This document shows, in pieces, positions 3,287-62,897 of a stretch of DNA of 64,000 bases. Both the position numbers and the translations under genes were made by a program. Origin of the DNA: a phage; sequence record OZ346212.1; one strand, given 5' to 3'. Position 1 is the stretch's first letter. Each line of letters begins with the position of its first letter. The notes beneath the pieces are model-generated. The model was given only the letters and a program-made list of their open reading frames with translations. It had not been told where the DNA came from and made no database searches.

Positions 3287-3640
3287 GATGAGTACCAACT
3301 TCAAGTCCCTGACACACCGAAGTATAAGACTGTGTACACCTTCGACACAATCGAAGAACTGGAAGCATTTAAGGCAGAGCAGGAGGCCAAACTTCATGTG
3401 TTCGACGGTCATAAGTACAAAAAGGCACGCAAGGATGAGGACGGAAACGAAGTGGTTGACAGAGACGGAAACACGGTGTACGATCCTATCCTGAACGATG
3501 ACGGAAAGCTTGAACTTATCTGGAGCCCTGTGGGTGAAATGGTGGTGCATTGCTTCTGGCAAGCTTCTAAAATGATGGGCGTCCCGTTCCAGATCACGGG
3601 TGAATACCTGTGTGGTCGTAATTGGGGTGATTGTCACTAA
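3287..3640 (+). CDS. DNA polymerase exon 2 (motif C to C-terminus)
   Basis: Frame reads DEYQLQV... supplying the missing HDE; C-terminus ...GEYLCGRNWGDCH parallels the T7 DNAP C-terminus ...GKMGPNWAICH. Confidence 0.7.
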   Translation, partial: DEYQLQVPDTPKYKTVYTFDTIEELEAFKAEQEAKLHVFDGHKYKKARKDEDGNEVVDRDGNTVYDPILNDDGKLELIWSPVGEMVVHCFWQASKMMGVPFQITGEYLCGRNWGDCH

Positions 3641-3689
3641 TGTAAACTATCAACACATGGAAGTGTTGTTGAGCAAAGAGGAGACTTTT

Positions 3690-3974
3690 ATGGTAGTAGA
3701 ACCAACAAAAACATTTACATCCATGACTATCCCTGTTATTATGCAGGTGGAGTGTGTTCAGGTATCTCAAGTGTGGCCTGGCACCAAAATCCCGACAGGG
3801 CCTGATTTCTTTCAGGTTGGCAAAGTGTACAATGTCTGGAAGGCACCAGATTGTTACCCTTTCATCAAAGATGACCGTGGGATGCTGTGGTATCTTGGAA
3901 ATGATTTGACACTGCACCTTGGGAATGCTATTATTGCAGTATTCAGACTTAACAAGAAGGAGACTGATCAATGA
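3690..3974 (+). CDS. hypothetical protein
   Basis: ATG 3690 preceded by AAGAGGAG; longer track ORF (from 3600) would overlap the polymerase 3' end. Confidence 0.5.
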   Translation: MVVEPTKTFTSMTIPVIMQVECVQVSQVWPGTKIPTGPDFFQVGKVYNVWKAPDCYPFIKDDRGMLWYLGNDLTLHLGNAIIAVFRLNKKETDQ

Positions 3975-4198
3975 CGACTTTGGTTAAAGCTACCTTTGTA
4001 GAAGAAAAGATGACAGACCTGTCATTCTTTAAAGAAGGAAAGACCTACGAGGTTTATTACGATAAAGCTCGTGCAAATAAAATGATTAAAGACGAGGAAG
4101 GGGTTGCCTGGTTTATCTCCCATCTGGCAAACGGTGAGTATCATATCTACGGAACCACCCTGCTTGCCAAGTTTGTAGCTGTTGAAGAGGACCTATGA
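3971..4198 (+). CDS. hypothetical protein (75 aa)
   Basis: Track ORF, start overlaps upstream stop (ATGA), co-directional compact packing. Confidence 0.55.
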   Translation: MTTLVKATFVEEKMTDLSFFKEGKTYEVYYDKARANKMIKDEEGVAWFISHLANGEYHIYGTTLLAKFVAVEEDL

Positions 4199-4389
4199 AA
4201 GTAAAGTATCTGGCTGAGGGTATGAGTAGGTATTTCACCCTTGGTGAAGAATATTGGCCATTTACAAGCAACGGCGATGTCTACGTGAAAGATAATTTCG
4301 GCACGCCATGGTTTTTGCACCCTAACGGGTTAGGGTATTCTATTTATCGCAGTGCAATGAGCGACACAACCCTTGCAGAGTTTGTATAG
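4195..4389 (+). CDS. hypothetical protein (64 aa)
   Basis: Track ORF, ATGA overlap with upstream gene. Confidence 0.5.
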   Translation: MKVKYLAEGMSRYFTLGEEYWPFTSNGDVYVKDNFGTPWFLHPNGLGYSIYRSAMSDTTLAEFV

Positions 4390-4847: not shown

Positions 4848-5102
4848 ATGAAAATTACTCTGAAGCCAGAATGCGTTGAAAATGACCGAGCTTTTAAAGA
4901 TTGCACAATCGGTGCAATTTATGAAGCAGAGTTTTGTGAGAACCCTTTGGTAAAAGCCCTTCTGGAAGAAGGAGCTCCTCTATCACAGGAAGAGCTTGAT
5001 GAGTTGGAAAACTCAGCACAGTGCCTTACCTTTAAAGATGATGAAGGAGACTCTGTCTGGTGCACTGTTAATGAAGTAGTTTTTGTAAAACCTGAACATT
5101 AA
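4848..5102 (+). CDS. hypothetical protein, paralog of 5166-5438
   Basis: SD AAGGAG; shares AF(K/R)DCT...KDD(E/Q)GD...C(T/C)T motifs with the next gene. Confidence 0.6.
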   Translation: MKITLKPECVENDRAFKDCTIGAIYEAEFCENPLVKALLEEGAPLSQEELDELENSAQCLTFKDDEGDSVWCTVNEVVFVKPEH

Positions 5103-5105
5103 TGC

Positions 5106-5134
5106 TTGACAACAGTCATAGGGCCTACTATAAT
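5106..5134 (+). promoter_or_regulatory. sigma70-type promoter (TTGACA-17-TATAAT)
   Basis: Perfect -35 and -10 hexamers with 17-nt spacer upstream of gene 5166. Confidence 0.6.
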
Positions 5135-5165
5135 GGCCCTATCAAAACGAAAGGGGACCACAGCA

Positions 5166-5438
5166 ATGACCAAACAATATCAACGAATTAAAGCCAAGGT
5201 TAAGCCAGACTATCTGGAGAAGGACTCTGCTTTTCGGGACTGCACAGCTGACAAAGTTTACACAGGGGCCGTCCTGTTGAACGATGAACTTGAAGTAGAT
5301 ATTCTGGGTAAAGAGGCCACTATTAAGGACGACCAAGGCGATTATGTTTGCTGCACCACACGTGAGCTAGAAATCTTAGAATACTTCGGTGAAATCTTCA
5401 CCTCTCTTGATGATTACTTAGATGATGAGGAAGCGTGA
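5166..5438 (+). CDS. hypothetical protein, paralog of 4848-5102
   Basis: ATG 5166 downstream of consensus promoter; track ORF start at 5106 is the -35 hexamer itself (TTG). Confidence 0.6.
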   Translation: MTKQYQRIKAKVKPDYLEKDSAFRDCTADKVYTGAVLLNDELEVDILGKEATIKDDQGDYVCCTTRELEILEYFGEIFTSLDDYLDDEEA

Positions 5439-6831: not shown

Positions 6832-8057
6832 TGAGCGTTATTCAACAATTCGCTAACCCGATGAATCCGCGTGAAACTGTTTTACTGGCTCACGGCATGA
6901 TTAAACGTGTCAGCATCAAGCCTATCAAAGGTGCTGATCCTACAACAGGTATTAAAACCACTGTGTGGCAAGGTAAGAAAATTGAATCCAGCCACACCAT
7001 CTCTTTACTGATTTCTGAACTGGATTCCTCTGATAACCTGCTTCAAGGTGGTGAAGAAGTTTGGATCAGCATGGGTGATAAGCTGCTTAAACCTGGTCAT
7101 CAAGACTCTGTCTCTGTTAAAATTGATGACAAGTGGGAAACCGTAACGCCGGGATGGATCGTAAATATTCCTTTGAAGGCAAACGAGCATAACGGTAAGA
7201 CCTATTACAAAGGCTCACTGGCTAAGATGGTCAAGCTGGGTGCAGGAGAGGCTCCAGCAGCGACTCAGCAGCAAAAACAGCAACAAGGTGCACAATCACA
7301 AGGCCAGAAGCAGAAACCTCAGCAGAATGCCAATCAGGACGTTTTACGCATCTATGGTGATGTGACTCAGATTGTTGGCAACGTGGTTACTGTTAATGAC
7401 CACAAGATTGGCGAAGGTGCTATGGTTGTAACTGATGAGCAGCTTAAAGACCTGGTGGTAGGTGGTCGTGTTGCAGCCATTGTTGACAAAGACACCGGAA
7501 ACATTATCAGTGGTTTCAAGGCCTATCCTCCTAAGGCAGAGAACGGCACTCAAGGCTCTGGTGGCAAGCGTAAATCCTCTTACGACCCTATCGGTGTGGA
7601 AACGGGGCATAGCATCAATGCGTTGCAGATCATCCTGGATCGCGGGTTTAAGGTAGACGACCCACTGGGCGTGGCTAAAACACTGCACGTAGTCACCATT
7701 GAGCTTAAGAAAGAGTATGCTCAAGCCACCAACCGAGCTGAAGATGAAGTAGGTGCCAGTGTCGGTAATGCGGTGTTGAACGCTTGTCGCCGTATTGACA
7801 AGAAAACGAAAGTTGATGATTTTGCAGTGGCAATTACTGCAGAAGCAAAAGATGTCTTGACTAATCTAGCTGAGCCGTTGTACGATTGGATCAAGAACGG
7901 TGCTGAGTCCACTGACCATCAAGAACCTCAGGCTGCCAAACAGGAAGCAGCTCCACAGCAAAACACTGTAGACGCTCCTCCTGTAAATGATGCGGAAGAT
8001 GACCCAATGGATCAGAATCCAGCACAGTACGTCTTTGATGATGACATCCCATTTTAA
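6831..8057 (+). CDS. putative ssDNA-binding-like protein with SSB-type C-terminal tip
   Basis: Ends ...YVFDDDIPF*, identical to the E. coli SSB interaction tip; internal Q-rich low-complexity linker (QQQKQQQGAQSQGQKQKPQQ). Confidence 0.45.
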   Translation: MSVIQQFANPMNPRETVLLAHGMIKRVSIKPIKGADPTTGIKTTVWQGKKIESSHTISLLISELDSSDNLLQGGEEVWISMGDKLLKPGHQDSVSVKIDDKWETVTPGWIVNIPLKANEHNGKTYYKGSLAKMVKLGAGEAPAATQQQKQQQGAQSQGQKQKPQQNANQDVLRIYGDVTQIVGNVVTVNDHKIGEGAMVVTDEQLKDLVVGGRVAAIVDKDTGNIISGFKAYPPKAENGTQGSGGKRKSSYDPIGVETGHSINALQIILDRGFKVDDPLGVAKTLHVVTIELKKEYAQATNRAEDEVGASVGNAVLNACRRIDKKTKVDDFAVAITAEAKDVLTNLAEPLYDWIKNGAESTDHQEPQAAKQEAAPQQNTVDAPPVNDAEDDPMDQNPAQYVFDDDIPF

Positions 8058-11599: not shown

Positions 11600-12780
11600 T
11601 ACTTGAAAATTCCTGGCATATCAAGTATAAGGGGGATTTCTAAAATGGATTTCCTCCTTTTGATATTTCACCGGGCTGGATATTTTAAAATTCTTAGAAA
11701 ATCAGAAAATGGATCGAAAACTAAAATGGATTTTTCAGAGTAGGCGCGACAAGCTGAATAACTCATCCTATCGTTTGCACCATATTCCAGGCCACCATTA
11801 TAGATTTCCCACACATGCTAACCTCTCCCTACTAGAACTTCCTCCACTTACCCTTGACCTTCTATGGTAACAATCTAACCGCTATCTTGAAGTTGCGGTG
11901 CAGCTTTCCAGGTACTCGATCTACTTTTCATTTCAGGGCTTGGATTTTCTGAAAATTTTTCTCGATAAATTTCTCAGTACTCGATCTGTTTTTCGTTTTC
12001 TGAATCGGATTTTCTGGAAATCGTTCCGGCTCTCAACCTGAAATTTTTGGGGACGAAATCGATTTTTCGTTTTCAGAAATGGATTTTTAAAATTTCTATA
12101 TGGGAATATTTTAGTGGATACTGTTTTATAGGAAATTGTTACGGAGGGTAATTAGCATGCTAATTAAATTTATTAAATGCGAGGAGTTCTCATTTAGAAT
12201 TTTGAATGATAATCATTCTCGTTTGCAGAATAACGGGCAGGCCCGGTGATTGTCTCCCGGCCCCTGTTGCCCCGGCTTGTTATTATAGTATCACACAGGA
12301 CAAAGAAAGCAAGGACTTTTTGCATAAATTTTTAAATGATAATGATAACCGTTCTCATTTTATGCAGCGCCCATCCCCGGTGGTTGTCTCCCCCGTCACC
12401 GGTGCCTGCCGTCCTTTCGATATGTATATTGTGCCACCTGGCGGGGCCGCTGTCAACACTTTTCAAAAAATTTTTCTAACCTGGTGCGCTAACCGTTGCA
12501 ACCTGGCGGGGCCAGCCTGGCAGGACCTAACTGACCAGGTAGGGGAGAATGAAGGCTTGTAAACCTGGTGGGCCTATGCTACAGGATAGGTAACAATTGA
12601 AGAGGAGGTACAAAAATGATATGATCCCCCTGGAAAATGTAGCTATTAATGACTCTGAGGCTATCGCCCTGGTTGAAAAGGCTATGGCGGGAGCGTTGGA
12701 ACATAAAGAAGAGTACGAAAATGGTGGTTAACCTGGCGGGGGCGGCAGGTGGATTCTATCATAAAAATAATTTAAAATAG
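11600..12780. other. non-coding repeat-rich island
   Basis: About 1.2 kb without a convincing ORF; degenerate GGATTTTCTGRAAA / TACTCGATCT repeats, two tandem units with Fur-box-like GATAATGATAA sites, repeated CCTGGCGGGGC motif. Confidence 0.6.
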
Positions 12781-14693: not shown

Positions 14694-14880
14694 TTTCGAG
14701 AAAATTGTAAAGCGCCCTCATGATTCCGAAGAGCTGCCAGAACGCCGCCAGCGTAACAATAAACTGAATAAGCCAAAAAGGTTTGGGAAGATCTGGCGTA
14801 ATCATTATGATCGTAAATTGCCCGGCCTACTTTTGGAACGTGAACGACAGGCAGAACGATACCGCCATAAAGACAAATAA
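14683..14880 (+). CDS. hypothetical basic protein
   Basis: Internal ATG 14683 after AAGGGGGG; R/K-rich. Confidence 0.45.
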   Translation: MKINFEKIVKRPHDSEELPERRQRNNKLNKPKRFGKIWRNHYDRKLPGLLLERERQAERYRHKDK

Positions 14881-14888
14881 CAACCAAC

Positions 14889-14917
14889 GCCCCGCCATTG
14901 TGCGGGGCTTTTTATTT
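14889..14917 (+). terminator. rho-independent terminator
   Basis: GCCCCGC-cattgt-GCGGGGC followed by TTTTTATTT. Confidence 0.7.
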
Positions 14918-15037
14918 CTATCCTACGAATAGCGCCCCTGGTTGGCCCTGTAAGCGCCAAAAAGGCCCCCACCTATGCAATCGCCCCTTTAACCTGAAAA
15001 CATCGCCCAGGGCCGTTTCATGGCGTTAAAAATATCA

Positions 15038-31204: not shown

Positions 31205-31603
31205 TTACTGAACAGAGCGCGGTGCTGGGAAGGATAACTCTTCTAAAGAGAAGATTTCATTTCCTACCACCCAAGTTGCTGGGTCATCTGGATCAACAGG
31301 TTGGATAATCATTACCTCATCCGCCTCGCACACACGTTTCCCACCCATAGTAGCGTCAGCCACTAACATACGCGGCTCTTCAGAAATGCACAGGTAGCCA
31401 CCTCGGCCCACTGTTCCTTCCACGGGATCCTGCCCTTTGACCACAATGAATACCTTCTCTCCTGTGGCGATATTACTTTTCACACTAACAGTTTGACCAA
31501 CTTTAGATGTACCGATCTTGGTGGCTTCAAACATTAAATCCCGAATTACTGTTGCATAGTTGCCGGACACTTTCTTACCTTCTTTAGTAATCTCAATCTT
31601 CAT
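31205..31603 (-). CDS. hypothetical protein, possible distant family member (132 aa)
   Basis: MKIEITKEGKKV...; track ORF. Confidence 0.5.
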   Translation of the reverse strand: MKIEITKEGKKVSGNYATVIRDLMFEATKIGTSKVGQTVSVKSNIATGEKVFIVVKGQDPVEGTVGRGGYLCISEEPRMLVADATMGGKRVCEADEVMIIQPVDPDDPATWVVGNEIFSLEELSFPAPRSVQ

Positions 31604-32740: not shown

Positions 32741-33790
32741 TTAAGCTTCTTCGACAATTCCTGCACCCAGGATTTTTTCATTGAGCTCTTTTGCTGTTTT
32801 AATAATATTGTCCACCAGACGCTTGCGAGTCTTATCTTTTACCTTAACCTCTTCACCGCCGTTCAGGGTTGTCTTCAATTGGGACAGAATGTCTTGAAGT
32901 TCAACGACAGAGAATCGCTGCAGATCTTCTGAGGTAATCTCGCCTAAGGCAATCTTAACGGTCTCACCACTTTCCATCTGCAGGTTCAGGAACACAGTGT
33001 GAACATCACCTTTCGAACCACCCGCTTTTGCAGATTCAACAGCATGAACTAGCTCATCTAAAGAGGTGCACTGGTGAATCTCCGGAAGACCTGCTTCACC
33101 TAGCACACCTTCTTCATCACCTTTTGCCAAAAGCTTTTTAGGTTTTTGTCCGTTCTGGATGCGTTGTATGTTGCCTTCATCCAGAATGATAGCTCCAGTT
33201 CGAGCTGCCAGCTCCTCTCCGTCCAACCACACTTCGCCACCCGCTGTGATGGATGCGATCTCATCTTCTGTCAGCACCCAACCGTAGTATTTTTCGATCA
33301 GGCGTTCGAAACGTTTTTTCCAGTAGCTGACCTGAGTATTCATGTTCACACCATTGCCATAAGTGCCGCCTTGATAGTAGTGGAACATAAACTCTGTGTC
33401 CGGAGCCACAGTGCGTTCTTTGCAACCCAGCCATAGGATTGTTCCAGCAGAGCAGCACATCCCTTCAGCATGTGCAACAACGCTTGCCTGAGACTCGCGG
33501 AATGCCTGTAGATAAGCCATTGCAATGTGCACGCAACCCCCAGGGCTATTGATGATCACACGAATGCTTTCTTCCGGCTGAGCCATACGGATCGTCTGCA
33601 GACGAGACATATGATCCTGCAGGTCCTCCAAATCGTCGATATAAAGAACGTGGTCAACAACAGGTGTTGGGTAGCTGTATGTTTCCATAATACCACCCGG
33701 CATACCAAACATTTTATTACTCATAGGTTCGAAACCGTTCTGTTTTTCTTTCATGCCGTGTACCATGGTTCTGCGAGGTGTTAAATTCAT
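32741..33790 (-). CDS. ClpP/S14-family serine peptidase-like protein with C-terminal extension
   Basis: INSPGGCVHIAMAYLQAF...GMCCSAGTILWLGC resembles ClpP core around the catalytic Ser. Confidence 0.6.
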   Translation of the reverse strand: MNLTPRRTMVHGMKEKQNGFEPMSNKMFGMPGGIMETYSYPTPVVDHVLYIDDLEDLQDHMSRLQTIRMAQPEESIRVIINSPGGCVHIAMAYLQAFRESQASVVAHAEGMCCSAGTILWLGCKERTVAPDTEFMFHYYQGGTYGNGVNMNTQVSYWKKRFERLIEKYYGWVLTEDEIASITAGGEVWLDGEELAARTGAIILDEGNIQRIQNGQKPKKLLAKGDEEGVLGEAGLPEIHQCTSLDELVHAVESAKAGGSKGDVHTVFLNLQMESGETVKIALGEITSEDLQRFSVVELQDILSQLKTTLNGGEEVKVKDKTRKRLVDNIIKTAKELNEKILGAGIVEEA

Positions 33791-52792: not shown

Positions 52793-53263
52793 TCAATCAA
52801 GGACAACACCGCCTGCCTTTTTAAACACCTCGATCAACTTCTCGATCTTCTGTTCATGCTGACCATATCCAGCACCAGGTAACGAAGCCCAGCGGGAACG
52901 GCATTTATGGATAGCCTCGTGGATACGCCCTTCGTCAATGTCGGCGAGAGCCTTGCACTCACGGATCAGTTGCAACGCAATCTTGTCCTGACTGGCGGGG
53001 CCAAAATCTGGCAATCCTAACTGTTCCATGTAGTGTTTAGCAAACTTCTCCAAAACCTGGTAACGACCAGCAGCGGAGGAGGTAAGTTTAGCATTTAGCT
53101 TAACGTACACACCTGGATGCTTGCTGTAATCGCTAAACAGCTTGCCACCAACTATGACATCGTATCCCCGATCCTTAGTGGGTTGCCTACCATTATCTGT
53201 GCCTTCCGAATATGCGATCATGTCCAAGAAAGCTTTTCGTTGAACATTTTTATCAAGTTTCAT
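52793..53263 (-). CDS. lysozyme / lytic transglycosylase, lambda R-like endolysin
   Basis: QRKAFLDMIAYSEGTDNGRQ...GYDVIVGG...WASLPGAGYGQHE collinear with lambda R QRKAFLDMLAWSEGTDNGRQ... Confidence 0.85.
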   Translation of the reverse strand: MKLDKNVQRKAFLDMIAYSEGTDNGRQPTKDRGYDVIVGGKLFSDYSKHPGVYVKLNAKLTSSAAGRYQVLEKFAKHYMEQLGLPDFGPASQDKIALQLIRECKALADIDEGRIHEAIHKCRSRWASLPGAGYGQHEQKIEKLIEVFKKAGGVVLD

Positions 53264-56793: not shown

Positions 56794-57144
56794 TCAGTAG
56801 ATGTTTTGTTTAATCTCTATTCCAAACTTCTTGAATGAGTCAGCAGCAAGCATAAATTTACGAGCTGCCGATGGATTAGAAGTATGCACGAAAATAATCA
56901 CGTTGTCAATAAGTGGTGGCTTTCCGAATACAAGTTTCTCCTCTAGCGCAGAGAAGCAGTCGTACCCTTCAAGCACTTCACCTAGATCATTGTCAAAATA
57001 CCACTCAGATACGCGTCTGTAGAGCTTTCTCTTATCATTAAGAAAATCCATAAACTCAGAAGAATTCTTTAGCCACAGAGCGTCTGGGAGTCCATAATCT
57101 GACGGATCTCTAAAATCATCAAGCCACACAATCCACTTCTTCAT
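56794..57144 (-). CDS. hypothetical protein (116 aa)
   Basis: Track ORF between the sirtuin-like and ligase-like genes. Confidence 0.5.
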   Translation of the reverse strand: MKKWIVWLDDFRDPSDYGLPDALWLKNSSEFMDFLNDKRKLYRRVSEWYFDNDLGEVLEGYDCFSALEEKLVFGKPPLIDNVIIFVHTSNPSAARKFMLAADSFKKFGIEIKQNIY

Positions 57145-58076
57145 TGCATATAGTCCTCGTTGTGGAAATAGTAGTCCAGTATCTCACGACGCTCCTGCTC
57201 TAATAAGCAATTCCACACATCTTCTGTATAGTTGCTACGAATAAATTTTACCATACCGTAAAACTCTTCGTCAACACGTTTAAAGATATCATCATCCCAA
57301 ATCTTCCAAGCTTTACCCCTCATTACTGCCTTCCGTGCCAGATAGTATGGAGACTTGATCTTCAGCTGCAGATCATAAGGGTAGTAAGGCTTACGAATCA
57401 TATACCCTTCACCTCTTGTTTCTGCAGCTAATTCTTTTGCATAGCTGAACGGAATTTCACGCACAGTGTTAGGACGTTTTGCACCAAGGTATTTGGCAAT
57501 CCCATCTAAAGCTGCTTCTGGTAGCATTATTCCAGAATCATTATATCTGCAACCTATCAAATATGCGCCATGGTCTTCTTGAACAATATGCGGATCTGAA
57601 GGGTGACAAATTTCAAACATGAATGTCATGTTTTCATTGCCCATAACCTTCTTGATAAGATCTAAATTACCACATTGCTCTTGGATGGTTTCCTTTGCAA
57701 GGTTACAATATGGAGAATCAAGAGACCCGGTTGTTGAGAACAATAGGTCACCTTTATGAGATGATACCACACCAAGGAATCCGTTCTTTTTCTCTACCGC
57801 AGTCACAAGCTTATTGTCAGGCAGGTTGGTGGAGTTTTCTCCCAAGTTAAACACTTTTGTGAAGGGCCATGCCACAACATTTCCTTCATTACCTACAACA
57901 ATGCCTCGGCACTCCAGTAAACGAGGGGACAAATGCCATAAATTGTTGTAAAATACTTTTCTAGCATATTTATAGATCTTTAACCCGAGATCTGGGTAAT
58001 ACCTACTGGTTACAAGACCTTTGTCAACTAGGTCGTCTGCATTAAAATACTTCATTATATGTTCCTCATTTGTCAT
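57141..58076 (-). CDS. putative RNA ligase / nucleotidyltransferase (ligase superfamily)
   Basis: Candidate motif I VEKKNGF (KxNG); divergently paired with P-loop kinase and phosphoesterase next to tRNA genes. Confidence 0.4.
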   Translation of the reverse strand: MTNEEHIMKYFNADDLVDKGLVTSRYYPDLGLKIYKYARKVFYNNLWHLSPRLLECRGIVVGNEGNVVAWPFTKVFNLGENSTNLPDNKLVTAVEKKNGFLGVVSSHKGDLLFSTTGSLDSPYCNLAKETIQEQCGNLDLIKKVMGNENMTFMFEICHPSDPHIVQEDHGAYLIGCRYNDSGIMLPEAALDGIAKYLGAKRPNTVREIPFSYAKELAAETRGEGYMIRKPYYPYDLQLKIKSPYYLARKAVMRGKAWKIWDDDIFKRVDEEFYGMVKFIRSNYTEDVWNCLLEQERREILDYYFHNEDYMQ

Positions 58077-58176
58077 TTTGTCAGTCTATCCTGCCACACA
58101 AATAACCTAGTGTCAACACTTGAAATTAACAAAACAGTTAGGTATACTACCGTTGAAATTAAAACGGAGGGTCGCT

Positions 58177-58587
58177 ATGTCTAAAATGCTATATATCGTG
58201 CGTGGTCTACCAGGGTCTGGCAAATCAACACTGGCAAATGAGCTATCTTTAGAGGGTCTGTATCCACATTTTGAGAACGACATGTTCTGGTATGACGATG
58301 ACGGCAATTACAACTGGGATGCAAGTAAAGTAACACTCGCAGCAAAATGGTGCAAAGATAACGTAGAAGATATGATGCGTATGGGATACGACCGTATCGT
58401 GGTAAGTAATACGTTTACAAAAGAAAAACATGTGCAGGAATATGTTGACATGGCAATCACTCACGGGTATAGTTATACCGTGATCGTGGTTGAAAACCGC
58501 CACGGTAATAAAAGCATTCATGATGTTCCAGACAAGGTTGTGGATCGTATGGAACGCCAGCTTAAAAACTGCATTAAACTTAAATGA
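58177..58587 (+). CDS. P-loop polynucleotide-kinase-like protein
   Basis: ATG 58177 after GGAGGG; Walker A GLPGSGKST; track ORF start 58120 lies in promoter. Confidence 0.6.
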   Translation: MSKMLYIVRGLPGSGKSTLANELSLEGLYPHFENDMFWYDDDGNYNWDASKVTLAAKWCKDNVEDMMRMGYDRIVVSNTFTKEKHVQEYVDMAITHGYSYTVIVVENRHGNKSIHDVPDKVVDRMERQLKNCIKLK

Positions 58588-58594
58588 GGAATGT

Positions 58595-59149
58595 ATGAAA
58601 TACTTTGTAACAAGCGACACACACTTTCTCCACCAGCGGGTCATGGAGTTTGATTCATGTCAAAAACACAGATCTCAGTATGATCACAATCTTGACAGTA
58701 TGAATGCAGGAATCATCGCCGAGTGGAACTCTGTTGTGTCACCTGCAGACACTGTGTTCCACTTGGGAGATATTGCGTGCACTAATGATAAGAATATCAA
58801 CAACTTACTTCCAGATATTCTAAATATGTTGAACGGACATATTATTCTTGTTCGTGGCAACCATGACACAAGGACGACTGTCAGAATTATGAAAGAGTTC
58901 GGTCATGAGGTTGTAGATTATTACGAGCTTCGCCACAACAAGAATTTGATCTGTATGAGCCATTACCAGTTTGCAAAGTGGAACAGAAAGCCTCACGGAT
59001 CAGTCCAACTGTTCGGTCATGCTCACGGAACCACACAACAGTTGTTTGGCAGGCAGCTTGATGTCGGTTGGGATGTGTGGGGGAGACTCTTACCATTAGA
59101 AGAGGCATACCGTATTGCAATGAGTTTTGATATTGACAGCAGGGAGTAA
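58595..59149 (+). CDS. calcineurin-like metallophosphoesterase
   Basis: MPP motifs SDTHF, GDIAC, GNHD; ATG 58595 after GAGGA. Confidence 0.65.
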   Translation: MKYFVTSDTHFLHQRVMEFDSCQKHRSQYDHNLDSMNAGIIAEWNSVVSPADTVFHLGDIACTNDKNINNLLPDILNMLNGHIILVRGNHDTRTTVRIMKEFGHEVVDYYELRHNKNLICMSHYQFAKWNRKPHGSVQLFGHAHGTTQQLFGRQLDVGWDVWGRLLPLEEAYRIAMSFDIDSRE

Positions 59150-59196
59150 TCCCTGCTATTTTAAAGAAAATTGCCACACAAGGAGAATCAGGAGAT

Positions 59197-59547
59197 ATGA
59201 AAGATGGGGATAAGCTGCTATATCTTAAAGTCCCCCTTGAAATACTATCTATGTCAAAAGTTTTGAATGACACAACTGGGGAGGTTGTTGTTCTTGACTT
59301 GTATGACAAGATCGTATACTGCTACCTGCACAACTGGTATAAGCTTGGAGGAAATTCACGCTTCACACCAAGCACAAGGAAAATTGCAGCAGATGTTGGG
59401 ATAAAGAAAACAAAAGCAGCAGCGTGCGTTAAAACTTTAGAATGTGCAGGAGTGGTTGAAACATCCACACAAGGGAGAGGTAAAAGATGCACATTTTCCA
59501 AAGTTTTGCCACCAGAAGAAGTTATTCGGATGTCAACAACTGGTTAG
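59197..59547 (+). CDS. putative HTH DNA-binding protein
   Basis: Helix-turn-helix-like STRKIAADVGIKKTKAAACVKTLECAGVV; immediately upstream of iteron array. Confidence 0.5.
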   Translation: MKDGDKLLYLKVPLEILSMSKVLNDTTGEVVVLDLYDKIVYCYLHNWYKLGGNSRFTPSTRKIAADVGIKKTKAAACVKTLECAGVVETSTQGRGKRCTFSKVLPPEEVIRMSTTG

Positions 59548-59621
59548 ACCAGTAAAAACTTAAATATCTGTACTATAAGGATTCGTATGTTTTATGTTCG
59601 CCATGGAACGGATACTATTAA

Positions 59622-59704
59622 CTGTCCGTGATACGGACACTACTGTCCGTCACGCGGACACATCTGCCCGTAATACGGACACTAACTGTCCGTGATACGG
59701 ACAC
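59622..59704. repeat. four phased palindromic iterons (CTGTCCGTGATACGGACAC, 21-22 bp period)
   Basis: Copies at 59622, 59643, 59664, 59686; each an inverted repeat TGTCCGT-N3-ACGGACA; followed by AT-rich tract to about 59830. Confidence 0.85.
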
Positions 59705-59829
59705 ATAAAGAATATAACTAAAATAACTAAATAATAAAAAATAAAAGATCTAGTACTTATGGTACTAAGTACATATACTTAACTTATGTAGAATATACTA
59801 GATCCTAAGTACCATGTTTTAAATTTATT

Positions 59830-60100
59830 ACTTACTATGGGCAGTGTCGGCCCTTCATTGGCACTCGCCTACGAGGGGGCGAGATGCCGGGCCTCCTTGG
59901 CGCACACAATAACAGAAGTTCATACATGCAGGTCTGTTAACATGTGTGGGAGCGAAGCGATAGCGCAGGCCAAAGGCCGAGCACTGATGTGGACCACCGA
60001 CGAAAGCTTGCCAGCGCCGTAAGGAGTCGGTTGAGAGTCTCCCGCGCGAGCTTGGATGAAGTTTATGTGTGGAAACTGACAAGAAGGCCCCTAAATCGCT
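59830..60100. ncRNA. GC-rich structured non-coding segment (candidate ncRNA, identity unknown)
   Basis: Sharp GC jump in an AT-rich genome; nested hairpins e.g. GGCA-CTCGCC-tacgaggg-GGCGAG-a-TGCC; both-strand ORFs are not protein-like and lack SD. Confidence 0.3.
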
Positions 60101-60208
60101 CCACAGCTATATAAACTATACCAGGTAATGCAATCGCACCAGTTTGATAGAAAAGCTCGTTACAAAGCGATACAGTGAGTTTTTCTATAACTTGAAGAGG
60201 AGGCAGCT

Positions 60209-60787
60209 ATGGGTTCACGCAAAGATGACCGTGAAAAGATTGCAAAACGTTATCAGAATGAAGAACAGATGGAGAAAACTTTCAAGTGGAAGCCAGGTTT
60301 CCAGCGTAATCATTCTAACGCTCGTGATCGTAAGCATCCGGATAAGTGGCTAACACCGCCAAATGATGGCATGCAGGTTGGGGATGAGAAGGAGATGTCG
60401 CCTGGAAAAGATGGCAACTACATTCGCACTAAGGACGCTGGTCCAAAGGATGACAGCTATCTTGTAGATAAGGTTCTTGATGGTATCAATGTAGATGTTG
60501 ACACTGCACGAAACCTTTTTCTTGGGTGGTATCGCACAGGTTTTTTCGACATCAAGGCTATTCGTCGTGTTTGTGATATTAAAAAGTCTGCATATGATGA
60601 CGACTCGTTACATCGCACCCTGAGACAATATTCAGAAAGATATGGTCATCCGGTTATCACTCTTGACGATGTTAACGAAGTGATGTATCATGCAGAGGTT
60701 GTTGCAGGAAGATTCGGTGATGCATATCTTGATATCCTTTCTGCAAAGGATGAGGTAATGTTAAATAAGATTTACTATGAACGCTGA
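60209..60787 (+). CDS. hypothetical protein (192 aa)
   Basis: SD GAGGAGG then ATG. Confidence 0.6.
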   Translation: MGSRKDDREKIAKRYQNEEQMEKTFKWKPGFQRNHSNARDRKHPDKWLTPPNDGMQVGDEKEMSPGKDGNYIRTKDAGPKDDSYLVDKVLDGINVDVDTARNLFLGWYRTGFFDIKAIRRVCDIKKSAYDDDSLHRTLRQYSERYGHPVITLDDVNEVMYHAEVVAGRFGDAYLDILSAKDEVMLNKIYYER

Positions 60788-60797
60788 GGAGCGCTTA

Positions 60798-60986
60798 ATG
60801 AACAACCCGGTAGCAAAGAACTGTAATAAGTTCAACAAGTCTGCAATTCACACTGACAGGAAAAAGAGCTGGTCTCCTGACATTGACGAGGAGCTTGAGA
60901 GTTACTTTGAAGACCTGGTCACTAATGCAGATGAGGTTGCGATTAAAGAATACGCAGACAGGAAGGATAAGGCCGGAATCTGTTGA
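60798..60986 (+). CDS. hypothetical protein
   Basis: Internal ATG 60798 after GAGGAG; track ORF starts 60777. Confidence 0.45.
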   Translation: MNNPVAKNCNKFNKSAIHTDRKKSWSPDIDEELESYFEDLVTNADEVAIKEYADRKDKAGIC

Positions 60987-61062
60987 CAAAAATAGTGTTA
61001 CCTGATAAGATCTGCAATATGATGTGATGCAATTTTAACTTACGAGGTCTACAGGTAATGCT

Positions 61063-61305
61063 ATGTTTAAGGTTAAGCTCGTTTTTCGTTCCATGAATGA
61101 GGATTATTTAGAAGATGAAGGTGAATTTCGTGCACTGGATGATGCAATAGATTTTGCCAACGACTTAGCTTGTATGAATACGGGTTATGGGCTATGCTGT
61201 TGGGATGGTGGTGTTCAGATCGGTGATAGCAAGATCTTCTACTTCTACCCTGAGCCTGATAACAAACAAATTAAGTATGTTTTATTTATTTGTGCTTTAC
61301 AATGA
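61063..61305 (+). CDS. hypothetical protein (80 aa)
   Basis: Preceded by TTGACA promoter at about 60984. Confidence 0.5.
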   Translation: MFKVKLVFRSMNEDYLEDEGEFRALDDAIDFANDLACMNTGYGLCCWDGGVQIGDSKIFYFYPEPDNKQIKYVLFICALQ

Positions 61306-61329
61306 GGTTGTTTTCGTGTATCATGATGA

Positions 61330-61592
61330 ATATCCAATTTAAAGATGAATTTGATGGCTTTATCTCCGGATGCTTTGAAACAGGGTTCGGAGAAGGCTGA
61401 GTTCCCCTTAGAGGGCTTGATAGTGCACCACACTTAAAATGGTAGGGGCAGCCAGCACATGACGATGTGACCCCAGCCAACCTGTAATAAGGTCGAGCCA
61501 AAGTGCGGTAATGGGCTCTGGTAACCCACTTGTTGGGTCTTGCTGGTCCAGGACGCTGGACAAGTCGCAGGGAATACCACCCTGCGGCGAAC
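61330..61592. other. second GC-rich structured non-coding segment
   Basis: No protein-like ORF on either strand; hairpins TCCAG-gacg-CTGGA, GCAGGG-aatacca-CCCTGC. Confidence 0.3.
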
Positions 61593-61621
61593 TTGACAAT
61601 CAGTATTTGCTATGATAAAAT
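61593..61621 (+). promoter_or_regulatory. sigma70-type promoter (TTGACA-17-TAAAAT)
   Basis: Hexamers 57 nt upstream of ATG 61650. Confidence 0.55.
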
Positions 61622-61649
61622 CCACCTATCACGTGATAATGGAGGAAAC

Positions 61650-61988
61650 ATGGCGGATACAACTAAAAAGCGTCGCCGTAGAGGCAGACCTCTGAAAGAG
61701 GAGTCCAACGCCATTCAGCTAGAGAAGAACATCCTTGATATGAAGGAATCTTTTATAGCGATGGTTCCAGAAGCTCACAAAGTTTTAAGAGAGCTGATGT
61801 TGGACCCGAAAACCAAACAAAATATTCGTCAAAGCATTGCAGAGTATGTTCTTGATAAGGCAGACCGAATGCAGGAAGAATATGATGAGATGTTTGGTGA
61901 AGAGGAAGAGGTGGTAGTAGAAGAGGCTGAAAAACCAGCACCTTTTATGCCATTCACCACAGAAATACAGCCTGTTGGCAATAGTTAA
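61650..61988 (+). CDS. AT-hook-containing acidic protein
   Basis: ATG 61650 after GGAGGA; KKRRRRGRPLK AT-hook-like motif, acidic C-terminal half. Confidence 0.55.
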   Translation: MADTTKKRRRRGRPLKEESNAIQLEKNILDMKESFIAMVPEAHKVLRELMLDPKTKQNIRQSIAEYVLDKADRMQEEYDEMFGEEEEVVVEEAEKPAPFMPFTTEIQPVGNS

Positions 61989-62084: not shown

Positions 62085-62159
62085 GCCCTGTTAGCTTAGT
62101 GGATAAAGCAGCGGCCTTCTAAGCCGTTGACACTGGTTCGAGTCCAGTACGGGGTGCCA
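62085..62159 (+). tRNA. tRNA-Arg (anticodon UCU)
   Basis: Hand-folded cloverleaf: acceptor GCCCTGT/ACGGGGT, anticodon loop CTTCTAA, T-loop TTCGAGT, encoded CCA. Confidence 0.8.
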
Positions 62160-62163
62160 AATT

Positions 62164-62250
62164 GGGGAGTTATCCCGTAGAGGTAGCGGTGTAGACTGTA
62201 AATCTATTGTCATTGCGACTCGGGTGGTTCGACTCCACCACTCCCCACCA
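62164..62250 (+). tRNA. tRNA-Tyr (anticodon GUA), long variable arm
   Basis: Acceptor GGGGAGT/ACTCCCC, anticodon loop CTGTAAA, T-loop TTCGACT, CCA; overall like E. coli tRNA-Tyr. Confidence 0.8.
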
Positions 62251-62364
62251 AATTTATATTTTTAGATGCATAAATAATACAGATAATGGCATTGATATTT
62301 ATCGTCGTTTATACTAGTCACTAACTGCTCGAAAATCAGTGTCATTATCAGTATTATTTATAAA

Positions 62365-62455
62365 GGAGGGTAGGGAGCAATGGTGCTCAATCGGTCTTGA
62401 AAACCGTCCCGTTGAGGATGACTCGATGATGGTTCGATTCCATTACTCTCCGCCA
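62365..62455 (+). tRNA. tRNA-Ser (anticodon UGA), long variable arm
   Basis: Acceptor GGAGGGT/ACTCTCC, anticodon loop CTTGAAA, 20-nt variable arm, T-loop TTCGATT, CCA. Confidence 0.75.
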
Positions 62456-62553
62456 CATTGTTGACCTTGTAATTAAGCGAAAGTCGGAAGCAGAACCGGA
62501 TTATCAAATGTTACAGTCGTCATCGCCGACTAGCAACATGGTCAACATACTGA

Positions 62554-62650
62554 GCTAGGTAAGCCCTTTGGCAAGGGCGAGGATTTTTAATCCTGAAAAT
62601 AGACGAGGTAGTCGTTGAATACATAGGTGGTTCGATTCCATCACCTAGCA
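62554..62650 (+). tRNA. atypical 97-nt tRNA-like gene (possibly Lys-UUU with about 29-nt variable region) or pseudo-tRNA
   Basis: Perfect acceptor GCTAGGT/ACCTAGC, D-arm GCCC...GGGC, hairpin with loop TTTTTAA, extra hairpin ACGA-ggtag-TCGT, T-arm GGTGG-TTCGATT-CCATC; no encoded CCA. Confidence 0.35.
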
Positions 62651-62657
62651 CCTTTTT

Positions 62658-62733
62658 GCTGATGTAGCACAATCGGTAGTGCAATTGATTTGTAATCAAT
62701 AGGTTGTAGGTTCAAGTCCTGCCATCAGCACCA
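62658..62733 (+). tRNA. tRNA-Thr (anticodon UGU)
   Basis: Acceptor GCTGATG/CATCAGC, anticodon stem ATTGA/TCAAT with loop TTTGTAA, T-loop TTCAAGT, CCA. Confidence 0.85.
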
Positions 62734-62734
62734 A

Positions 62735-62809
62735 GGCCCTGTAGCTGGAAGGTTCAAGCAAGCGACTCATAATCGCCAGACGGTGGTTCAATTCCACCCA
62801 GGGCCACCA
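62735..62809 (+). tRNA. tRNA-Met or Ile2 (anticodon CAU), elongator type
   Basis: Acceptor GGCCCTG/CAGGGCC fully paired (not initiator-like), anticodon loop CTCATAA, T-loop TTCAATT, CCA. Confidence 0.75.
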
Positions 62810-62820
62810 AATAGTAAATA

Positions 62821-62897
62821 CTCCGCGTAGCTCAGCTTGGTAGAGCGCCTGATTTGGGATCAGGAGGTCGAGTGTTCGAATCACTCCGTGGAGACCA
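62821..62897 (+). tRNA. tRNA-Pro (anticodon UGG)
   Basis: Acceptor CTCCGCG/CGTGGAG, D-arm GCTC...GAGC, anticodon stem CCTGA/TCAGG with loop TTTGGGA, T-loop TTCGAAT, CCA. Confidence 0.85.

Follow-up and report, generated by a model that had tools for sequence, protein, structure and literature searches.

A short, GC-rich interval just ahead of the tRNA gene cluster of an rV5-like phage raises the question of what, if anything, it encodes. We addressed it in a 64,000-nucleotide stretch of phage DNA (sequence record OZ346212.1; hereafter, the window), which originates from an rV5-like Vequintavirus. Positions 61330-61592 of the window had been flagged as a structured non-coding segment upstream of the promoter of an "AT-hook" gene (ORF74) and likened to a second GC-rich segment at 59830-60100. 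Because 61330-61400 belongs to an open reading frame (ORF) of 32 amino acids at 61302-61400, which takes up the first 70 nt that had been flagged, the non-coding element is confined to 61401-61592 (~192 nt). We conclude with high confidence that this element is a selected RNA structure and represents a new, apparently uncatalogued family of phage RNAs.

A sensitive blastn search of 50,697 phage records with the element retrieved 119 rV5-like and ~690 T4-like phages. The T4-like matches, which included T4, RB27, Dhakavirus, Mosigvirus, and T4-likes of Klebsiella and Yersinia, were limited to a stretch of ~43 nt (window 61473-61515) with 90-97% identity, and nothing else was shared with rV5. The family was collected by scanning IMG/VR, metagenomes, and bacterial genomes for exact words and degenerate patterns and by further blastn searches; with these, 896-937 phage records carry the core. 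Members comprised T4-like phages of types A and B and their variants, the rV5-likes, an uncultured vequinta-like lineage without a cultured relative (type C), some Phapecoctavirus (phiWec188/190, SF1-1, DE16, and PsgM04F), the N4-like Klebsiella phage Pylas, uncultured 46-kb phages, and the singletons L024, L065, L075, L085, L089/L091, and L093. Captured host DNA was ruled out, since blastn found no match to the element in E. coli genomes. The exact 18-mer occurred twice in 596 Gb of prokaryotic sequence (185,579 bacterial and archaeal species, each represented by one genome), apparently by chance. Eighteen records labeled "Campylobacter phage" (MG0656xx, host C. jejuni) were 99-100% identical to rV5-like coliphages over the region and are probably mislabeled or contaminant assemblies. 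A 177-kb T4-like sequence (L086) carried two tandem cores at 5093-5249, the second of which is degenerate (CCUGUAAUAAGGCCAG..., 39.5 bits).

The aligned sequences follow a shared architecture. From 5' to 3', it consists of the first strand of stem P1, a pseudoknot strand, an optional hairpin P1a, the second strand of P1, the first strand of P2, hairpin P3, CGA, P4, GGUAA, the second strand of P2 with a bulged G, and the second pseudoknot strand. The core is a three-way junction of P2, P3, and P4, joined by CGA and GGUAA and clamped by the pseudoknot to the loop of the preceding hairpin P1. In the window, where all of these features are on the plus strand, P1 (61445-61474) pairs GGGG at 61445-61448 with CCCC at 61471-61474 and encloses the 5' pseudoknot strand CCAG (61452-61455) and P1a (CACAU-GACG-AUGUG, 61456-61469). 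The conserved 46-nt core occupies 61474-61519. Its P2 is formed by A61475-U61517, G61476-C61516, C61477-G61515, C61478-G61514, and A61479-U61512, with G61513 bulged; P3 (ACCU-GUAAUA-AGGU, 61480-61493; family consensus ACCU-GUARNA-AGGU) is followed by the joining segment J3/4 (CGA, 61494-61496), the mini-hairpin P4 (61497-61506), and J4/2 (GGUAA, 61507-61511). The 3' pseudoknot strand, CUGG at 61518-61521, pairs with CCAG in P1. Elsewhere in the family, the P1a loop is GACG, GAUUAU, or GCAA, and the hairpin is absent from some members; the linker between P2 and the 3' pseudoknot strand is CU, UAU, UAAAUA, UUUACAUA, or U, or is absent.

Covariation across many phage lineages strongly supported the prediction of a structured non-coding RNA. 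Unsupervised MAFFT alignment of the whole motif shifted the loop registers, and two alignments were therefore used: A2, a hand-registered, loop-masked alignment of 37 distinct sequences fitted to the structure, and A5, an ungapped 46-column MAFFT alignment of 41 distinct cores that was not fitted to it. In A2, 91.6% of cells were paired, compared with 67% in shuffled alignments, and the covariation score was 0.608, compared with 0.168 (none of 500 shuffles scored as high); with the partners slid, only 31-55% paired. Both sides changed in all five P1 pairs (95.7% of cells paired), with variants such as GGGG/CCCC in rV5, GGAAC/GUUCC in type C, GGGAA/UUCCC in T4, and AAAGG/CCUUU in type B T4-likes. 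Both-side changes were also seen in three of the four P1a pairs (100% paired) and in all five pairs of the pseudoknot helix, which occurs as CCG/CGG, CGC/GCG, CAC/GUG, GAGG/CCUC, GGGUA/UACCC, and CGGAA/UUCCG. As A2 had been fitted by hand, we added a register-free test of the pseudoknot: cognate loop and tail duplexes averaged -5.8 kcal/mol, compared with -2.9 kcal/mol for non-cognate ones, and none of 20,000 permutations was as good.

The independent alignment agreed on the core. In A5, the inner three P2 pairs were paired in 41/41 sequences through four, four, and three pair types, respectively; the covariation score was 0.238, compared with 0.071 for shuffles (0/500 as high) and at most 0.066 for slid partners. 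The register with the bulged G was clearly better than the unbulged one. Two other pairings can be drawn on paper, a long-range CCAGC/GCUGG helix in rV5 and type C and a UGGUA/AGCCA extension of P1 on its 5' side; both were rejected, as they compete with the bulged-G P2, which fits all lineages. P4 was supported by GCC-UUUU-GGC (L085), GCC-CAU-GGC (L089), GUC-CGU-GAC (L024), and GCG-CAA-CGC (L022). The P3 stem never varied, and its loop appeared as GUAAUA, GUAGAA, GUAAAA, GUAGCA, GUAACA, and GUAGUA. Since the G-U wobble pairs of the structure work on one strand only, the RNA was assigned to the plus strand. A covariance model of the core (R1) scored 61474-61519 at 67.9 bits (E = 4e-22), its sole match in the 64 kb; with filters off, the next best score in the window was 11.9 bits. 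R1 recovered members that were not in its seed (L065, L089, and the second copy in L086) and had no match in the T4 tRNA region or around the ORF74 homologs of other Vequintavirinae. A relaxed structural pattern matched only family members across all sequences collected. Folding energy was modest (z = -1.6 for 61401-61592 and z = -2.3 for the whole spacer), and the case for the structure thus rests on the comparative data.

The family matched nothing in the catalogs that we searched. Among the 4227 covariance models of Rfam 15, no family matched 61290-61660 or its T4 counterpart at E <= 10; the flanks alone gave noise-like matches (E 2-6), to two snoRNA models and one sRNA model. At E <= 1, the sequences of L024, L056, L075, and L065 matched only at nearby tRNAs. 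No description of the motif was found in the open-access literature. A tRNA or tRNA-like gene was excluded because neither ARAGORN nor the Rfam tRNA model called anything at 61401-61592, and an intrinsic terminator or attenuator was excluded because no terminator-like site was found at 61300-61650. A protein-coding gene or a degenerate remnant of one was likewise rejected for 61401-61592: its ORFs had no PHROG match, the G-U pairs are strand specific, and close relatives differ by indels of 1, 3, and 11 nt. Among rV5-likes the linker reads CT, TAT, TCT, or TATAG, and L069 has an 11-nt deletion, differences that are not whole codons.

Whether the RNA works on its own or controls a neighboring gene was judged from its surroundings. 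Outside the T4-likes, the core is usually found no more than 1 kb from same-strand tRNA genes. It sits upstream of the tRNA cluster with ORF74 in between (rV5-likes and type C), between tRNA-Asn and tRNA-Tyr in ~1 kb without ORFs (L024), between tRNA-Thr and tRNA-Gly (L056 and the Phapecoctavirus carriers), directly after four tRNAs (L075), or in a 1-kb gap without annotated genes ~700 nt past the tRNA cluster (Pylas); in the 46-kb phages and L089/L091 it adjoins tRNA genes. The sequence stretches of L065, L085, and L093 that we examined contained no tRNA genes. In T4-likes, the core is on the coding strand in the short denV-vs.8 spacer, where the flanking sequences differ and the same helices are kept. 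The Phapecoctavirus spacer between tRNA-Thr and tRNA-Gly is ~185 nt longer with the core than in relatives without it (L056 1012-1507 versus L080 1203-1511), and the extra segment is flanked by the similar short sequences ACAUAACAGGUAAGAACA and ACACAACAUUAAGAGCA, which suggests a cassette-like insertion or loss. In type C, a perfect promoter (TTGACA-17-TGcTATACT) ends ~7 nt before the equivalent of 61401, past the remnant of the small ORF. No promoter of this kind was seen before the RNA in rV5 itself, where the RNA is probably read from the predicted ORF75 promoter (60983-61011) or from a weak site at 61296-61324. This modular spread, the variable neighbors, the separate promoter of type C, and the residence in regions of stable RNAs led us to favor an autonomous, trans-acting RNA, which we regard as probable, over a cis-regulatory one. 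The fuller reading of a stable, released, trans-acting phage RNA family has, in our estimate, slightly better than an even chance of being correct.

The strongest competitor is a cis-acting leader or riboswitch-like aptamer, a folded junction that would respond to a ligand or protein and control translation of, or read-through into, the next gene (vs.8 in T4-likes; ORF74 and the tRNAs in rV5). The T4-like element lies 45-60 nt upstream of the vs.8 start across a promoter-free gap, and a conserved hairpin, GYGCCA-NGGAA-UGGCCC, lies near the T4-like ribosome-binding site. The invariant junction, covarying stems, and pseudoknot clamp, as well as the size of 80-100 nt, are shared with riboswitch aptamers built on a three-way junction and a pseudoknot. 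Riboswitches, unlike this RNA, would be expected with a conserved downstream gene or expression platform. Here, the downstream gene varies: some T4-likes have another ORF, and L024, L056, and L075 have tRNAs or more RNA. In rV5 and type C, a strong promoter stands between the element and ORF74, no alternation between terminator and anti-terminator was found, and the window holds no Vs.8 homolog (ORF77 is unrelated), so that Vs.8 was rejected as a partner shared with rV5. On balance, a leader is an unlikely explanation. The same evidence bears on the proposed tie to the "AT-hook" gene: because the RNA lies upstream of and outside the transcript from the ORF74 promoter, and because its neighbors differ elsewhere (denV and vs.8 in T4, tRNA genes in other lineages), it is unlikely to be a dedicated regulator of that gene.

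A self-cleaving or processing RNA that cuts a polycistronic or tRNA precursor is less probable still, and we give it a small chance. The comparison is with the HDV-like "theta" ribozymes, which are linked to phage tRNA genes. The strand order P1(5')-pseudoknot(5')-hairpin-P1(3')-[junction arm]-pseudoknot(3') equals that of P1, P2, P3, and P4 in HDV-like ribozymes, a nested double-pseudoknot order that in this family is supported by covariation; the element begins exactly at stop codons and sits in tRNA arrays, and its invariant unpaired nucleotides resemble an active site. Against this, there is no P1.1 helix; the equivalent of J4/2 is a linker of 0-8 nt without the conserved catalytic C; the counterpart of the P3/L3 hairpin varies, or is absent from L056, L075, and Pylas, so that a conserved L3 is missing; and the conserved bases lie in an arm that HDV-like ribozymes can dispense with. 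Among the Rfam ribozyme models, none matched at E <= 10.

A nut-like site is very unlikely. By analogy with lambda N and boxB, the arginine-rich N terminus of ORF74 (MADTTKKRRRRGRP...) would bind the GNRA-like P3 loop (GUARNA) in the nascent transcript and modify RNA polymerase to read into the tRNA cluster. The order promoter-RNA-ORF74-tRNAs does resemble PL-nutL-N, with the RNA just upstream of a gene for a product with an arginine-rich N terminus, and in the three other Vequintavirinae genera examined, ORF74 homologs lie within the tRNA cluster. These homologs are found only in Vequintavirinae, however, whereas the RNA also occurs in T4-like, phAPEC8-like, and N4-like phages that lack ORF74. 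Conversely, PVP-SE1, Mydo, and 4MG have ORF74, and the core is absent from the 3.2-3.3 kb around it. The RNA and ORF74 co-occur only in rV5-likes and type C, and ORF74 was therefore rejected as an obligate partner; the RNA is also far more elaborate than boxB. The least probable account, a DNA-level signal (homing-endonuclease target, recombination hotspot, or origin element) or the remains of a decaying gene carried among coliphages by recombination, would fit the patchy, mobile-looking distribution, the presence/absence difference beside tRNA-Thr, the homing endonuclease SegB in the T4 tRNA region, and, 1.7 kb upstream in the window, iterons and a gene for a replication initiator, but the four helices are kept paired by compensatory changes despite wholly different sequences between lineages, the G-U wobble pairs are valid on one strand only, the length changes are not whole codons, and no PHROG match was found for the ORFs there.

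Several points weigh against a stable, trans-acting RNA. In T4-likes, 5.5 kb separate the element from the tRNA cluster; it directly follows a stop codon and precedes vs.8 without an intervening promoter, a position that would suit a cis-acting leader as well. No canonical terminator was found at the 3' end of the RNA. Parts of the comparative evidence also call for caution: the search keys lay in P3 and J3/4, which makes the invariance of P3 partly a matter of construction; A2 was registered to the structure by hand; and in T4 proper (type A) the pseudoknot has just 3 bp and is no better than non-cognate pairings. The suggestion of a role in counter-defense, which is tentative, draws on genomic context.

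If the RNA is indeed autonomous, its expression and action can be sketched as follows. In rV5-likes, it would be read through from the message of ORF75 and the small ORF (ORF75.1), beginning just after the stop codon; in type C, it would be driven by its own strong sigma-70 promoter; and in most other lineages, it would come from within or beside a same-strand tRNA gene cluster. The RNA would be released, remain stable, and act in trans rather than regulate a neighboring gene, and the invariant loop and junction nucleotides would be presented to a conserved partner, which could be a host factor of enterobacteria or a protein of the phage. It might serve as a decoy or inhibitor, for example, in counter-defense linked to tRNA or translation, a role that its context hints at and that we consider possible though not likely. 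At a similarly low level of confidence, it could be a decoy or inhibitor of host tRNA-directed or nucleic-acid-sensing defense, or a new ribozyme or aptamer built on the CGA/GGUAA three-way junction. A decoy would be an RNA counterpart of protein anti-defense factors that moves together with the tRNA and RNA-repair genes of phages. Several traits are hallmarks of accessory functions in host takeover or counter-defense: a core that is nearly identical in phage families with no other DNA in common, a patchy distribution (the Phapecoctavirus spacer is one case), the habit of residing in tRNA clusters, and, in the window, an RNA-repair set 2-4 kb away. If these conclusions hold, a conserved pseudoknotted RNA domain that is missing from Rfam is present in T4 and in more than 900 other sequenced phages, related or not. 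T4 offers an easily deleted target, the ~135 nt between denV and vs.8.

One annotation may have concealed the RNA in T4T, where vs.8 is annotated from an upstream ATG and the 37 extra codons cover the motif (L003 1491-1601; HM137666 64782-64892). Other T4-likes start vs.8 ~110 nt later, and the extended frame is lost in dhabil and the type B phages; the extension is probably an annotation artifact.

The boundaries and flanking features of the element in the window can be placed as follows, all on the plus strand. Escherichia phage rV5 (DQ832317) and a dozen further Vequintavirus genomes match the surrounding 501 bases at 100% identity; an indel sets the upstream GC-rich element apart from that of rV5, and we therefore call the window rV5-like rather than rV5. 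The rV5 counterpart of the interval is flanked by ORF75 and ORF74, and the first tRNA-cluster gene follows ~430 nt downstream. The small ORF at 61302-61400 (MRLFSCIMMNIQFKDEFDGFISGCFETGFGEG) is outside the RNA. Its ATG overlaps the ORF75 stop codon (ATGA), its product matches PHROG 6828 (E = 5.5e-9), it is an annotated coding sequence in phages ime and VB-EcoM-WM, and four of seven substitutions among rV5-likes are synonymous; type C phages keep an eight-codon remnant (MKDEFDGF*). It is thus probably coding, and the statement that the interval held only junk ORFs was correct for 61401-61592 and incorrect for 61330-61400, the 3' part of this ORF. The weak promoter-like site mentioned above (TTTACA-17-TATCAT, 61296-61324, 10/12 matches in a consensus scan) is a possible additional start for transcripts running into the RNA. 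The element begins right after the TGA at 61398-61400, is homologous over its full length to type C phages, and ends at the -35 box of P74, the promoter of ORF74 (61650-61988). The promoter predicted at the 3' edge is this P74 (61593-61621; sigma-70 TTGACA-17-TAAAAT with an upstream TG, 11/12 matches), which is annotated in the rV5 GenBank record DQ832317, is kept in type C, and lies downstream of and outside the RNA. The high local GC content also held for 61401-61592, at 55.7% compared with a mean of 42.7% for the window (z = 3.4; just 0.2% of 192-nt windows reach this level). Other regions in which 192-nt windows reach a G+C content of at least 52% are 721-973, 7451-7793, 12331-12593, 14821-15023, 31251-31473, 33351-33643, and 52801-53083; these may be simply coding.

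Four further hairpins surround P1 and the core, and type C phages share the whole rV5 layout except the last of them. Ha (CCCU-UAG-AGGG, 61405-61415, followed by CUUGAUAGUGC) was predicted by minimum free energy (MFE) folding and is part of a vequinta-specific 5' domain (61401-61444). It is nearly invariant between rV5-likes and type C and offers no covariation. Hb (CCCA-CUUGU-UGGG, 61525-61537), also predicted by MFE folding, is replaced by CCC-AUAGA-GGG in type C and is probably dispensable, as it is missing in L069 through the 11-nt deletion. Both hairpins named in the original prediction are present in the sequence and in the MFE fold. The first, TCCAG-GACG-CTGGA (61547-61560), is lengthened by CTTG/CAAG at 61539-61542 and 61561-61564 to give Hc (CUUG[CUGG]UCCAG-GACG-CUGGA-CAAG, 61539-61564); L021 and L045 show one-sided U-A to U-G changes in it, and type C has CUGG-GGACGGA-CCAG at this site. 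The second is Hd (GCAGGG-AAUACCA-CCCUGC, 61567-61585), which is restricted to rV5-likes and absent from type C; it is followed by GGCGAACUUGAC rather than by a U tract and is not a canonical terminator.

The segment at 59830-60100 proved not to be a sister of this RNA. The two resemble each other in base composition, and the likeness did not extend to sequence (no blastn similarity) or to the core fold, as R1 had no match at 59830-60100 with filters off and the core occurs once in the window. The upstream segment is also absent from type C, which keeps the RNA. It was found only in rV5-likes, with 87-99% identity over 269-291 nt, lengths that show that its differences are not whole codons, and is more variable than 61401-61592. 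In rV5, it is annotated as the 56-amino-acid ORF78. Nearby, ORF79 (59197-59547) matches the replication-initiator PHROG 12838 and HTH_36/DUF6945 and is followed by four iterons of 21-22 bp (TAACTGTCCGTGATACGGACAC, 59619-59704) and then by a very AT-rich stretch, so 59197-59830, just upstream of the first GC-rich element, is likely a replication origin.

On the other side of the RNA, all seven tRNA calls in the window fell within 62085-62897. One ARAGORN call (62554-62652) has an odd length of 99 nt and a 4-base anticodon and scored 35.5 bits with the Rfam tRNA model, and two annotation-free gaps of ~100 nt in the cluster (62251-62364 and 62456-62553) could hold more small RNAs. ORF74 (PHROG 3330), which precedes the cluster, has the arginine-rich N-terminal sequence KKRRRRGRP and an acidic C terminus and is conserved across Vequintavirinae; its location midway through the tRNA cluster of PVP-SE1, Mydo, and 4MG (L095-L097) suggests a role related to tRNA or RNA. 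The RNA-repair-like set (57141-59149), which precedes the RNA and the tRNA cluster by 2-4 kb, comprises an Rnl1-type RNA ligase (PF09511, minus strand), a P-loop kinase (AAA_33), and a metallophosphoesterase. Past the window end, the large terminase subunit of rV5 is annotated as three joined pieces (ORF64ABC; record 58027-60872, L001 5802-6501), which implies intervening sequences in the terminase gene.

Some other loci are more complex. In Pylas and the 46-kb phages, conserved "frame" sequences (UCCGUUGUG ... CACAACACACAACAGGUAAGAGCAUUG ... CAGUGCUCUU) recur every 192-221 nt (L078 1340-1700; L081 5229-5540; L083, L087, and L090) and bracket differing structured modules, among them the core and a tRNA-like T-arm; the arrangement resembles an array of framed RNA modules next to the tRNA genes. 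In L024, the ~1 kb that holds the core (3342-4337, minus strand) contains no ORF longer than 85 amino acids, matches neither cultured phages nor Rfam, and may be a large composite RNA.

Among known systems, the large ornate RNAs GOLLD and ROOL, phage and prophage RNAs of unknown function that often adjoin tRNA genes, offer one comparison. Like them, the core is found in ORF-free stretches of ~1 kb beside tRNAs (L024 and Pylas); unlike them, its conserved unit is small (46-100 nt) and modular, and it gave no Rfam match at E <= 1. Short resemblances, namely to the GUAAUA loop of 23S rRNA (1093-1098), the 16S 530-loop (GCGGUAAU), RNase P (GUGCGGUAA), and the UGUAA of the tRNA-Tyr anticodon loop, were given no weight. 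Another parallel is with the T4 species 1 and species 2 RNAs (rnaC and rnaD). These differ from the RNA described here in sequence and structure, and they were rejected as homologs because the T4 region that carries them matches neither the core pattern nor R1; in T4, moreover, the new RNA lies 5.5 kb away from them. Like it, however, they are small structured non-coding phage RNAs whose function is not known, encoded with tRNA genes on the same strand, and both would presumably be released by tRNA-type processing. The T4 deletion target thus bears on the role of non-tRNA RNAs in phage tRNA regions, a question that dates back to the discovery of the species 1 and species 2 RNAs.

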